A stretch of 64,000 nucleotides of DNA from an uncultured bacterium (lineage in GTDB: Bacteria; Babelota; Babeliae; Babelales; JACPOV01). Where the stretch lies: contig CAVUUR010000009.1 in the NCBI GenBank assembly GCA_963744715.1, forward strand, positions 1 through 64,000. The letters run 5' to 3'. The translations under genes and the position numbers were made by a program. The notes beneath the pieces are model-generated. The model ran no database searches, was not told the origin of the DNA, and saw only the letters and a program-made list of their open reading frames with translations. Of the stretch, positions 653-5,417 are shown piece after piece (position 1 is the stretch's first letter; each line of letters opens with the position of its first letter).

Positions 653-1051
653 CTATAGAGCCTTTTTCGTTCCTAGTGCCTTTTGCTGTTTTTCTATTTT
701 TTCTTGATTGTCATACCATTGAGTGTAACAATCCCAGTGGGTCATTACATTCTTTTTTTTAATTTTCCTTCAAAGCAAAAGTTTCTAAATGCTTTCCAGG
801 CATCGTTTTTTACATTAGATTTTTTACTACGAAATAATACATGATATTTGGCCAACTTTCATAACGCCATTTTGCTACCGTTTTATAGGGTATTTCATGG
901 AATACAAGCGCGGTCCATTCAGTTGAAAGATCAAATCCCATAAAGTCTACAACATCATGTCGCTTTTCATAAGCTGTTCGTAAAAGGTATCAGCTTGTTT
1001 TTTGGTAATTTTCTTTTCATATACTTCGCGTAAAATGTCTCTTTTTTTCAT
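653..1051 (-). CDS. putative immunity protein, copy 2 (frameshifted; not in ORF track)
   Basis: Manual translation across frames: MKKRDILREVYEKKITKKQADTFY...FMGFDLSTEWTALVFHEIPYKTVAKWRYESWPN...NVMTHWDCYTQWYDNQEKIEKQQKALGTKKAL; paralog of 1222..1579. Confidence 0.7.
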
Positions 1052-1060
1052 TTTTTACTC

Positions 1061-1213
1061 TTAAATATCAAGTTTTTTATTTTTTAGCGGGGGTTTGTAA
1101 AATTTGTTTGTTTGAGGATCTATCGAACCAAGGTGTCTTTTTGACTTATCATATGCATCTACATCATTATGTAAATCATTCCACTTAATATACTCTGCAC
1201 CATCAATTCCATA
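1061..1213 (-). pseudogene. orphan toxin C-terminal cassette (colicin E3-like RNase tip)
   Basis: Manual translation YGIDGAEYIKWNDLHNDVDAYDKSKRHLGSIDPQTNKFYKPPLKNKKLDI*, clearly homologous to the C-terminus of 1728..2771. Confidence 0.8.
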
Positions 1214-1221
1214 AGATTCTT

Positions 1222-1579
1222 CTATTTTTCTTTATCGTTATACCATTGAGTGTAACAATCCCAATGAGTCATTACATTTCTTTTCAGTTTTCCCTGAAAG
1301 CGGATATTTCTAAATGCTCGCCACGTATCATCTTTAACGCTAAATTTTTTACCACAAATAATGCAGGTATTTGGCCATCCTTCATAACGCCATTTTGCCA
1401 ATGTTGCATAGGATATATTGTGCAAAACAAATGCGGTTGCTTCTGTTTGCCAATCTAAACCCATAGTGCCAAAAATGTCTGTTTGGCCACTTGCAATAAC
1501 GTCATTGTAAAAGATATCAATACATTTTAGGGTTATTTTTTTTTTCATAAAGTTCACGTAGAATATCTTTTTTTTTCAT
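1222..1579 (-). CDS. putative immunity protein, copy 1 (CxxC...HxxC), one frameshift in a homopolymer near 1536-1546
   Basis: MKKKDILRELYEKK joins KITLKCIDIFY...KWRYEGWPNTCIICGK...THWDCYTQWY; lies directly downstream of a toxin gene. Confidence 0.7.
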
Positions 1580-1717
1580 ATTTTGTATAGGTTTATAAAG
1601 TTTTTTTGTTCGAGGATTAACTGAACCAATGTAGTTTTTAAATTTATTATAAACCTTTATTACATAGTGAGTATTCGGTATTGATGCAGTTGGTCCCGAA
1701 ATATTTCTTTTTTTCAT
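1580..1717 (-). pseudogene. degenerate toxin-tip fragment in frame with the start of immunity copy 1
   Basis: IKVYNKFKNYIGSVNPRTKKLYKP aligns with VEAYNVSKRHLGSIDPQTEIIYKP of the full toxin. Confidence 0.55.
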
Positions 1718-1727
1718 GTATTAACTT

Positions 1728-2771
1728 TCAAATATCAATCGTTCTATTTTTTACTGCCGGTTTATAAATTATTTCAGTTTGAGGGTCGATAGATCCTAAG
1801 TGCCTTTTTGATACATTGTATGCTTCTACATCATTATGTAAATGGTCCCATTTAAGATATTCTGCACCTTCCATTCCATTAGCATTTTTCTTTTTTCGGT
1901 AAATTCCTTCTCGTAAATATTCATAATCCTCTTTCGCTTTCTTAACAAATTCTGTTTTAGAGGTACTATTTACTTTGCGTTCTTTATGCTTATCATGATC
2001 TTCGTTAGCTTTTTTATGTTGCTTGTCATTCTTGTCTTGATTATTATTATCGTTTTTTTCGTTACTATTATCATCATCTTTTTTTGGCGGTTTACCATTC
2101 TTCTTTTTTTCTTTTTTAGATTTGGAATGTTCCCTTTTGTCTTTAACATTATTTTTTTCATGAAAACCGGCGGTCAAGGCAACTTCAGCACTATGTCTTT
2201 TGAATAATTTTGCGCCCAAAATACTACCAAGTGCAATTATGCCTGCCGTAATACCAATTTCAAGACCTTCACCAAAAATCCAAACGGCTACTATTGATAT
2301 CACGGGAGCAAAATTATGCACGGGAATGTGTAACGTTGATACGCAAAAAGTATGATAATCTGCTACAGTAATAGTATAAACTTCTATTTCTTCATCAACT
2401 TGATGTACTATGCATGGTGCTATAGTATCATTGCAACCCAGATAATCAGTAATATTGCTGGCATTAATCCATCTTTTTTCTTGTGATACATATATTTTTT
2501 GATTAGGCGCTGTTCCGATACACTGATTACCTACAAAAATTTGTATATAGTTTTGAACGCGTTTTTTGGATGTATAAAGAATAGGCTTTTCAATGTAATT
2601 ATTACTAAAGTCGTAACACAGGATTTTATCGTTTATCTTTAATTGCTCTATGGGTATATAGCCAGTTGGGGTTTTAACCTTAGTTCCTGCAACAAAACCT
2701 TCGCCCATGAGCATATTGTTTAAACATGCATTGATTACTATAAAGATAATAAAGTGCTTGATACTCCTCAT
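1728..2771 (-). CDS. polymorphic toxin: signal peptide, Hint domain, hydrophobic segment, K/D/N-rich linker, colicin E3-like RNase domain
   Basis: Hint motifs GFVAGTKV..PIEQLK.ND and VYTITVADYHTFCV..VHN; C-terminal LKWDHLHNDVEAY...HLGSIDPQT matches colicin E3 cytotoxic-domain pattern YEWDSQHGELEGY...HLGSFDPKT. Confidence 0.85.
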   Translation of the reverse strand: MRSIKHFIIFIVINACLNNMLMGEGFVAGTKVKTPTGYIPIEQLKINDKILCYDFSNNYIEKPILYTSKKRVQNYIQIFVGNQCIGTAPNQKIYVSQEKRWINASNITDYLGCNDTIAPCIVHQVDEEIEVYTITVADYHTFCVSTLHIPVHNFAPVISIVAVWIFGEGLEIGITAGIIALGSILGAKLFKRHSAEVALTAGFHEKNNVKDKREHSKSKKEKKKNGKPPKKDDDNSNEKNDNNNQDKNDKQHKKANEDHDKHKERKVNSTSKTEFVKKAKEDYEYLREGIYRKKKNANGMEGAEYLKWDHLHNDVEAYNVSKRHLGSIDPQTEIIYKPAVKNRTIDI

Positions 2772-3047: not shown

Positions 3048-5417
3048 CTATTTTTCAGTTTGCTCAGGCATTAAAACGTGTTTAATCACTTCATCGGCGT
3101 GAGTTACCCAAATAACATTAATATCCTTGATGATATCTTCAAGGCCAATGAGATCATGTTTATTTTTATGCGGTAAAATAATATGAGGAACATCGATTTC
3201 TTTTTGCTGCCAATATTTTTTCTTTTACGCCGCCAATAGGCATAACATCACCATGTAAATTTAAGTTCACCAGTCATAGCATAATTAGCATTAATTGGCC
3301 GTTGGGTAAGTGCTGAAAGAATTGAAGAAAGCATGGTAATTCCAGCAGAAGGGCCATCTTTTGGTACTGCCTCCCGCAGGAACATGAATATGTAAATCAT
3401 AGTGCGTAAACATTTTAGTATGTAATGTTAAATTCTTTTGCATGTGCGCGTGCATAACTCAATGCTGCTTGAGCAGATTCTTTCATGACGTCACCCAATT
3501 GGCCAGTTAAGATTAACTTTCCTTTGCCAGGCATAATAACTGCTTCAATTTTAATCATTTCGCCGCCATAAGAAGTCCATGCAAGTCCATTAGTAATACC
3601 AACTTGATGATCTTTGCTCATATCATCTTCAATAAATTTACGTGGTCCAAGATAGTGTTCTAAATTATCCGGTGTAAAGTCAATAACTTTATTTTCTTCA
3701 ACAATAGATCGTGCTGCTTTAGAACATAATTTACGCATTAATACGTTCTAATTGTCGCACGCCAGATTCTCGTGTGTAGTTGACAATAATATCTCGTAAT
3801 AACATCATCACTGAAATGTTATATTATGATCTTCAAGTCCAGCATCTTTAATTGCTTTTTTGATCAAATGTTTATTGCTAATGTGTACTTTTTCTTCAAG
3901 GGTGTAACCAGAAAGTTGGATAATTTCCATACGATCACGTAATGGTTCAGAAATAGTATCCAAAGAGTTTGCAGTTGCAATAAAAATTACTTTTGAAAGA
4001 TCAAATGGACTCCCAAATAATTATCATAGAATGTTTTATTTTGTTGTGGATCTAAAACTTCAAGCATGGCTGCTGATGGATCACCTCTAAAATCAGCACC
4101 AATTTTATCAAGTTCATCAATAATAATAACAGGATTACATGATCCAGCTTTGCTAAATCCTTGAATAAATCGTCCTGGCATGGCACCAACATAGGTTCTG
4201 CGGTGCCCACGAATTTCAGCTTCATCTTTTACGCCGCCTAGTGAAATCTAAAATATTCGCGGCCTAAACATTTTGCAATGGATTTGCCAAGAGAGGTTTT
4301 ACCAGTTCCTGGAGGACCAACAAAACATAAAATTGGGGCGTACCCATCTTTTTTAAGTTTCTAATTGATATAAAATCAAGAATTCGTTCTTTAATATCTT
4401 TAAGCCATAATGATCTTCATCAAGAATCTTTTTTGCATGGTTAATATCAAGATTATCAGTCGTATTCTTTGCCCCATGGCAATGCCAAAAATCCATTCTA
4501 GATAGTTGCGTGTTACCGTTGCTTCCATTGAATCGGCGGAGGTTCGTTCAAGGCGATTTATTTGCCGATGTAATTTCTGTTTGTACTTCATCTGGCAATG
4601 GGCAAAGCTGCTAATTTTTCACGCATAGCTTCTATATCTTCAACATCATCTTCGCCAAGTTCTTTTTTAATTGCTTTTAATTGTTCTCGTAAATAGAATT
4701 CTTTTTGTAGATTTATTCATTGATTCGCGTGCATCGATTTCTTAATCTTTTCTTGCACTTCTGCAACTTCAATTTCTTTACTTAAATAGATATAAGTGTT
4801 TCAAGAAATTCTTTAAGCGTGGTTCTTTTCGAGCAAATCTTGTGCATCGTTCTACATTTAAATTAAGATGAGAAAGGATAAAGTCAGCAATTTTTTCAGG
4901 ATCTTGCATTTTGGATAAGAATAATATGAAAATCAGGACTAAATGATTGCCCTGCGCTAGCCATTTGTTCAGCCATTTCTTTAATATTTTTTATTTGAGC
5001 ATTAACTTCAGTATCTTCTTGTTGATCAGTATACTCAATAATTTCTACCTGTGCATTGAGCATACTCTCATTCAGCCATAATTTCTTGAGCAACTCGGCT
5101 TTACAAATTCCTTGAACAAGAATTTTTACGCCACCTTCAGGAATTTTGACTAAGCGCATAATAGATGCAACAGTACCTATTGATAAAAGATCTTGTGTGC
5201 CGATTGCTCCTTCATAATTATCGAGTTGTTTTTTTGAAGCAAAAGCATAAAACAATTTGGATTCATCAATCGCTTTATTGATGCCTTTAATAATGCTTTC
5301 ATCAAGCACGAGGAGTGGAACAATCATATGAGGAAATACCACAACATCCATAGTAGGGATGACCGGAAGTATCTCTGGAATAGTATTTTTTATCGTTTTG
5401 TTATATGCGGTTTTCAT
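3048..5417 (-). CDS. lon: ATP-dependent protease Lon (multiple frameshifts, probably assembly errors)
   Basis: LON N-domain ([15 protein letters not shown]), AAA+ motifs ([25 protein letters not shown]), protease domain ([31 protein letters not shown]). Confidence 0.95.

Follow-up and report, generated by a model that had tools for sequence, protein, structure and literature searches.

The toxin gene

The stretch of DNA analysed here (64,000 nucleotides; the window) comprises the initial 64 kb of contig C9 in the genome of an uncultured bacterium of the Babelota (1.26 Mb in 12 contigs, 86% complete, GC content ∼35%), a phylum in which the members described so far live as obligate parasites inside protists (PMC4378268, PMC6561590; here and below, citations refer to passages in the main texts of these papers). 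Near its start, on the minus strand, lies a compact polymorphic toxin gene (1728..2771; an intact frame of 347 amino acids), followed on the same strand by four further pieces: a remnant (A) of a toxin 3′ end or 'tip', a gene for a protein that we call X, a second tip remnant (B) and a paralogue of X (X′). An earlier note made from the sequence had listed these pieces in this order and had described the toxin as a Hint protein with a colicin E3-type ribonuclease (RNase) tip, an assignment that is borne out by profile searches with both domains. It had also supposed an intracellular bacterium, in agreement with the titles Babeliales and Dependentiae carried by relatives.

The chain opens with a likely Sec signal peptide (residues 1–23; 2703..2771), as judged from its basic start and hydrophobic core and from the leaders of related proteins. 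In these relatives, a similar leader immediately precedes the start of the Hint domain and often has Ala as its last residue; the Hint is therefore probably the mature N-terminus, with nothing to splice. The Hint domain (residues 24–153; 2313..2702) matches PT-HINT over residues 32–146 with an E value of 3.8e-7 and 30.9 bits, above the Pfam cut-off of 27.7. Gly stands where a Hint usually has its first Cys, the domain ends in His152-Asn153, and the profile match and C-terminal His-Asn place it with the PT-HINT/bacterial intein-like (BIL) domains. A splicing intein was considered and rejected, as the nucleophiles are missing, with Gly at the start of the Hint and Phe after Asn153. The domain is followed by a Gly/Ala-rich, marginally hydrophobic stretch (about residues 154–190; 2202..2312), which from its composition and the pattern in the family is likely to be a membrane-entry segment, or else a membrane anchor, and by a linker that by composition is rich in Lys, Asn and Asp (1977..2201). 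DUF1020 is absent from the Pfam matches of the toxin down to an E value of 1, the Hint coming directly after the leader, and the chain, at 347 residues in total, has no filamentous stalk, as had been foreseen.

The tip (residues 266–347; 1731..1976) matches the Cytotoxic family (PF09000) over residues 304–345 (E value of 5.8e-6; 27 bits against a Pfam cut-off of 22). A profile built from five E3-type tips gave five matches in the PDB, all of them to colicin E3 and the best with an E value of 5.8e-6. The D-x-x-H-x-x-x-E triad already recognized in the earlier note is retained as D309, H312 and E316 within WDHLHNDVE (residues 308–316), and with H324 and R343 all elements of the Tox-ColE3 motif are present, which is given in PMC3482391 as R, Dxx[HK], E and H, with stress on the second His. 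In an alignment of 25 E3-type tips, W, D, H, E, H and K each show at least 90% conservation. Colicin E3 and related CdiA-CT toxins cleave 16S rRNA between A1493 and G1494 (PMC9086364), and the tip is predicted, by homology, to cut 16S rRNA as well.

Searches of NCBIfam gave no match near the cut-off for either the toxin or X, and a single-sequence fold of the full toxin reached a predicted local distance difference test (pLDDT) score of 37.6, too low to be used. A promoter scan returned 26 sites against 13.9 expected, which is uninformative in such AT-rich DNA, and no terminator was seen at the locus in the same scan.

The downstream array

Ten nucleotides past the toxin stop stands the ATG (1717) of an X-like gene scar, of which the first eight codons survive (1694..1717, minus strand, as are all features of the array). 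The scar shares one stop-free frame with remnant A and with the ATG of X (1579). Remnant A (1580..1678; ∼33 codons) is matched by the tip profile at an independent E value of 2e-13 and has neither the D, E and second H of the motif nor a stop of its own. Protein X (1222..1579), the likely immunity protein, carries the pattern C-x2-C…H-x2-C; its main frame matches the family profile at an independent E value of 4e-27, while the first 17 profile positions match separately in another frame, and there is one frameshift, at a run of A near 1540. Remnant B (1061..1231; 56 codons) has no start codon, is 62.5% identical to the main tip over 56 residues and carries N, D and K in place of the D, E and R of the motif, although single substitutions here are uncertain because of the assembly error rate. 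The 3′ end of X and remnant B meet at a short common A-rich word, X ending at 1222 where X′ runs on. The paralogue X′ (653..1051; ATG at 1051) starts nine nucleotides past the stop of remnant B and lies in four frame pieces, with at least three frameshifts and an uncertain 3′ end.

The repeats of the array are 73–88% identical in DNA. Differences between X and X′ are distributed 19/5/21 over codon positions 1/2/3 (67 codons) and those between the tip and remnant B 11/4/18 (46 codons); second positions are spared, a pattern as in sequences that diverged while coding. The same layout is seen in a genome assembled as a single contig (G027), where a toxin and a DUF6980 gene are followed twice by a tip-end scar (24–40 codons) and a DUF6980 gene, and tandem partner genes without tips occur in four genomes (G059, G200, G116 and G142).

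A toxin-tip/immunity array had been proposed for the locus, and this description fits in part: the remnants, X and X′ are present, but there is no stock of alternative tips as in contact-dependent inhibition (CDI) and Maf islands, only short scars of the family of the main tip. Complete alternative tips, a common though not universal feature of polymorphic toxin systems, were not found downstream. Spare warheads were rejected as an explanation of the remnants, which are partial, share the family of the main tip and have altered catalytic residues. The array is best read as a series of collected immunity paralogues, each behind what erosion has left of the 3′ end of an E3-type toxin. Older immunity genes may have dragged with them the last 25–55 codons of their former toxins, by recombination within the conserved toxin end with deletions afterwards. 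Since the locus is not found beside lon in four relatives, it is a lineage-specific insertion.

Related Hint toxins in the phylum

PT-HINT was found in 89 of the 261 phylum genomes searched, all assigned to one order (72 genomes over the cut-off), and in 1 of 14 controls; related genomes do not count as independent here, and copies may be missed where a genome is incomplete. A pattern script applied to 55 loci yielded 43 Hint frames (one of them a false pick), most of which encode 200–700 amino acids. The usual layout in the sampled proteins comprises a signal peptide, a Hint that lacks Cys1 and ends in His-Asn, a Gly/Ala-rich hydrophobic stretch and a variable tip. In an alignment of 25 N-termini, H152 and N153 are present in every sequence and Gly-Phe stands at the start (G25) in at least 90%, a place taken by Cys in splicing domains.

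Named tips were recognized in 12 of the 35 compact Hint proteins scanned and belong to four families (Ntox37 in five proteins, Ntox21 in three, Cytotoxic in three and Ntox35 in one). Ntox21 tips have CdiI_N as the next gene in three of the four such proteins scanned (L002, L012 and L092). The source genome has four Hint toxin genes. Two of these are paralogues (L001:1339-2535 on contig C2 and L002:907-2013 on C9, beyond the window) that are identical at 214 of 236 N-terminal residues (91%) and then continue into unrelated tips, one pair of ends being Ntox21 with CdiI_N and the other an unnamed tip with an unnamed gene of 122 amino acids; this combination is direct sequence evidence for tip exchange. 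The same N-terminus with different tips, which the earlier note had suggested looking for, is thus found in the phylum, and the family has the marks of a polymorphic toxin: a conserved N-terminal trafficking part that bears four named tip families and, directly 3′, a small candidate immunity gene linked to the type of tip.

The fourth Hint toxin gene of the source genome (C6:14151-16099) is split into two frames near its start and has an unnamed tip, followed by two paralogous small genes; a similar tip with repeated partner genes occurs in G200 (L154). Outside the Babelota, weak searches for the compact architecture gave three matches and nine longer Hint proteins, and do not establish confinement to the phylum.

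Protein X and other partners of E3-type tips

A word-based search with X found no relative besides itself, and Pfam gave no match. The entry point to the family was an X homologue behind an E3-type tip in another genome (G021). A three-row profile gave strong matches in six other Babelota genomes, with three marginal matches discarded as chance, and a nine-row profile found 227 representatives at an E value of 0.001 among the 1.84 billion searched. Five of ten representatives looked up are named, each as hypothetical or uncharacterized, and atlas searches gave unnamed clusters only. The family alignment contains 100 members, nine from the loci and 91 of 150 listed representatives, mostly picked for single-domain length. 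E50 is invariant in this alignment and C76, C79, H111 and C114 are kept in 98, 94, 76 and 91 members, respectively. All four of these are present in X itself, which suggests one zinc site. No Pfam family matches more than one of the 100 members at an E value of 0.01; Imm-Cloacin (Im3) and Imm45, considered as identities for X, match none of them and were rejected. A sequence search of the PDB with the family gave nothing below an E value of 0.3.

A model of an X homologue from G115 (pLDDT of 90) predicts a helical N-terminal part and a C-terminal part with a hairpin–helix arrangement. The best match in a structure search is weak and involves a ZAD zinc finger (Z score of 3.6; root-mean-square deviation of 2.2 over 63 residues). 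Fold searches gave nothing at an E value of 0.001 and no Z score of 5 or more, a result that does not establish a new fold.

The genomic context was analysed for 44 loci retrieved by the X sequence alone, grouped at 80% identity into 27 clusters. In 20 of the loci and 18 of the clusters, X comes immediately after an E3-type tip or tip end, two of these being short remnants (E values of 3e-3 and 3e-5). This position directly behind the tip leads us to propose that X is probably a new, unnamed immunity family for E3-type tips, which agrees with the role previously suggested for it. The loci with X in this position include records titled Woesearchaeota, Muribaculaceae, Armatimonadota and deltaproteobacterium, and E3-type tips with X also end Rhs-like proteins. 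Two longer X homologues (L058 in G041 and L059 in G045) have no E3-type tip in front, and one of them is near an integrase-like gene.

X is one of several partners of E3-type tips. Behind 27 such tips in other Babelota, DUF6980 is found 17 times, X four times, in one case as a fusion with ankyrin repeats, ankyrin proteins twice and two unnamed families twice each. DUF6980 (PF22400) is present in 43 of the 261 genomes, often in tandem (for example L015:1810-2097, L024, L027, L028 and L035), and its placement makes it, too, a likely immunity family. One gene behind a Hint/E3-type toxin encodes X fused to ankyrin repeats (L057:1480-2685), and similar ankyrin proteins stand alone behind E3-type tips in G003 and G051. 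The two unnamed families directly behind E3-type tips are ∼185 (L031, L038) and ∼275 (L040, L047) amino acids long. A further unnamed family of ∼170 amino acids recurs behind toxins or candidate immunity genes (L005:676-1185, L010:472-990, L015:2104-2613 and L084:3768-4295); no Pfam match was found for the two members scanned.

Proposed mechanism and alternatives

From the domains, motifs, gene order, polymorphism and linkage described above, we infer how the system might operate. We consider it fairly probable that the locus encodes a stalkless, MafB-like toxin of the Babeliales that is exported, cleaved at its Hint, enters a membrane and cuts 16S rRNA in a competitor, with X providing immunity. 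In the cytoplasm of the producer the tip would be bound by X, as the gene order suggests. Export through Sec and removal of the leader would leave the Hint as the mature N-terminus, which would explain its lack of a first Cys. In Hint domains the terminal Asn brings about C-terminal cleavage, and the His-Asn end may accordingly act after Asn153 to release a fragment headed by the hydrophobic stretch. This stretch would then take the RNase across the inner membrane of the target, the weakest step of the scheme; the target is most likely to be a bacterium that shares the protist vacuole, whether a co-infecting Babelota or one of another kind, and membrane vesicles may be the route to it. By homology, the RNase would finally cleave the decoding site of 16S rRNA. 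Babela is reported with a type II secretion system as its sole secretion system (PMC4378268), Chromulinavorax, while in the food vacuole, seems to release outer membrane vesicles (PMC6561590) and MafB toxins have been discussed as possible vesicle cargo (PMC4287609).

A broader picture, which we offer tentatively and would not expect to hold in full, is one of RNase warfare throughout the phylum, fought between Babelota within the host by means of a shared family of very small toxins. The Hint would be a removable cap over a membrane-entry hairpin, cleaved in response to a signal, for example acidity in the food vacuole, and at least two undescribed immunity families with Cys motifs against E3-type RNases, X and DUF6980, would be collected from relatives.

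Several observations weigh against the main reading, that of a stalkless MafB-like toxin with X as its immunity protein. No E3-type tip precedes X in 9 of the 27 clusters, of which several have X among other small genes and one lies near a contig edge, and a tip is likewise lacking from L083 and L084, which are closely related to a locus where X does adjoin one. Behind the E3-type tips of the Babelota it is DUF6980 that is commonest (17 of 27), compared with 4 of 27 for X, and X may not be the original partner of the present toxin, because the gene that stood first behind it survives only as eight codons. No named tip was found at an E value of 0.001 in 23 of the 35 Hint proteins. X and X′ are not intact in the sole assembly of the source genome. 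Finally, neither a receptor-binding domain nor a gene for a secretion partner, mafA for example, was seen near the locus, which leaves delivery unexplained.

The toxin may instead be a host-directed effector, its RNase striking the mitochondrial (or other) ribosomes of the protist and X protecting the producer only during synthesis. The obligate intracellular life of the Babelota is in keeping with such a role, as is the target of both Ntox21 and E3-type tips, small-subunit rRNA (PMC9086364); Chromulinavorax replicates wrapped by a host mitochondrion and appears to shed vesicles, yet its infection leaves the mitochondrion intact (PMC6561590). Orphan and tandem immunity genes and the swapping of tips fit conflict among relatives, and the host-directed toxins of amoebal endosymbionts are described in PMC3482391 as being without immunity genes. 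Both kinds of target had been suggested for this toxin; co-infecting bacteria are now favoured and host organelle ribosomes less so, because extra immunity genes guard against relatives and not against the host. We judge a host-directed role unlikely.

The hydrophobic stretch could also be a stop-transfer anchor. The toxin would then face inwards, with a periplasmic Hint as trigger and an RNase in the cytoplasm of the producer held by X, in a system for dormancy, addiction or abortive infection. A signal peptide, a soluble domain, a hydrophobic stretch and then basic residues make up a type I membrane topology, the 15 residues past the stretch have a median of three Lys/Arg against two Asp/Glu (34 proteins), and no targeting domain is visible in the toxin. 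On a crude insertion scale, the stretch scores above zero in 34 of 34 proteins, with a median of +2.3 (two rows were mis-parsed), and, of the 14 top-scoring windows in a membrane transporter encoded on the same contig, half fall within this range, so that the scale does not tell an anchor from an entry segment. The stretch is, however, Gly/Ala-rich and only marginally hydrophobic, the tips and their partner genes are of the kinds that go with secreted polymorphic toxins, and E3-type tips with X are found at the ends of Rhs-like proteins too. An inward-facing toxin therefore seems improbable to us.

The frameshifts in X and X′ are probably errors of an unpolished assembly, since lon is broken here and intact in relatives and since the contig overlap is rich in gaps. 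Both lon paralogues of the source genome (window positions 3050-5417 and C7:112536-114831) are affected, whereas four relatives each have two intact copies (8 of 8). The ABC ATPase neighbouring lon is broken likewise, with breaks that differ between two overlapping contig ends, and C2:1-815 repeats C9:36-825 with 765 identities (93.5%) and 31 gaps in 818 columns. That the locus is instead decaying, with X genes that are true pseudogenes and a toxin that is silent or inactive, is very unlikely: the frameshifts, the two scars and the lack of synteny with four relatives beside lon point that way, as does a toxin gene that is unbroken although it holds 11 A/T runs at least six long, a fortunate outcome if errors were spread evenly, but lon and the ABC ATPase are broken as well and the toxin retains all of its motif residues, so that working immunity would be needed if it is expressed.

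With respect to the assembly itself, the starts of C2 and C9 overlap and probably join, and the other end of C9 overlaps C4. Contig C1 (3329 bases) has a GC content of 61% against 35% for the genome and is a possible contaminant.

Implications

Babelota have genomes of ∼1 Mb and have been studied mainly for their exploitation of hosts. The recurrence of similar short toxins across the lineage suggests that these parasites fight their own relatives. A toxin–immunity family in about one third of Babelota genomes would mean that rivalry during co-infection is strong enough to pay for in a reduced genome, and would offer a marker by which to follow superinfection exclusion. Few delivery designs are as simple as that of the toxin, which would provide a tractable test of nuclease delivery by a Hint and a hydrophobic stretch. 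X and DUF6980 would add two unrelated blockers of the colicin E3 fold, a classic model of toxin–inhibitor recognition, and hundreds of hypothetical proteins, from bacteria and one archaeon, would gain a function that can be tested.

Comparison with known systems

The general class of the toxin is already known, because the combination of Hint with Sec export and that of Tox-ColE3 with Hint are both tabulated in PMC3482391. No report of polymorphic toxins in Babeliales or Babelota and no paper on DUF6980 were found in a literature search that covered the main texts of mostly open-access papers; Additional File 1 of PMC3482391 may list relatives. The word 'intein' is absent from the main texts on Babela (PMC4378268) and Chromulinavorax (PMC6561590), and 'Hint' and 'colicin' are absent from that on Babela.

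The closest likeness is to the MafB/MafI system of Neisseria, with which the locus shares the lack of a filamentous stalk, an optional Hint/BIL domain, a small variable tip, an immunity gene (here a candidate) directly 3′ and downstream cassettes (PMC4287609, PMC4524018); the Sec signal peptide of MafB has a likely counterpart in the leader seen here. The Babelota toxin differs in having neither DUF1020 nor mafA. Its Hint lacks Cys1 and comes first in the mature chain, whereas that of MafB lies between DUF1020 and the tip (PMC4287609, PMC4524018); a hydrophobic stretch is interposed between Hint and tip, and the remnants are short scars of one family in place of whole alternative tips. With colicin E3 and Tox-ColE3 (PF09000, including the CdiA-CT of EC16), the tip shares a profile match over the cut-off and the motif (PMC3482391), and it stands in a protein without the receptor and translocation domains of the colicin. 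The immunity families listed for Tox-ColE3 in the main text of PMC3482391 are Imm-Cloacin and Imm45 only, and X is neither.

The array resembles the orphan modules of CDI and Rhs systems in that start-less toxin ends, with immunity genes behind them, stand downstream of the main pair (PMC9086364). Orphans of CDI typically have the pre-toxin motif as their first part and show toxicity on expression (PMC9086364), whereas the remnants described here are partial and changed at catalytic positions. Homogeneous polyimmunity loci likewise contain tandem paralogues of a single immunity family, but are described as never interrupted by toxin cassettes (PMC3482391), while here each paralogue bears the scar of a toxin end. 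What is new in relation to these systems is the spread of a compact design of leader, Hint, hydrophobic stretch and tip through an obligate intracellular phylum, together with an unnamed candidate immunity family, X, for E3-type RNases and DUF6980 as a second candidate.

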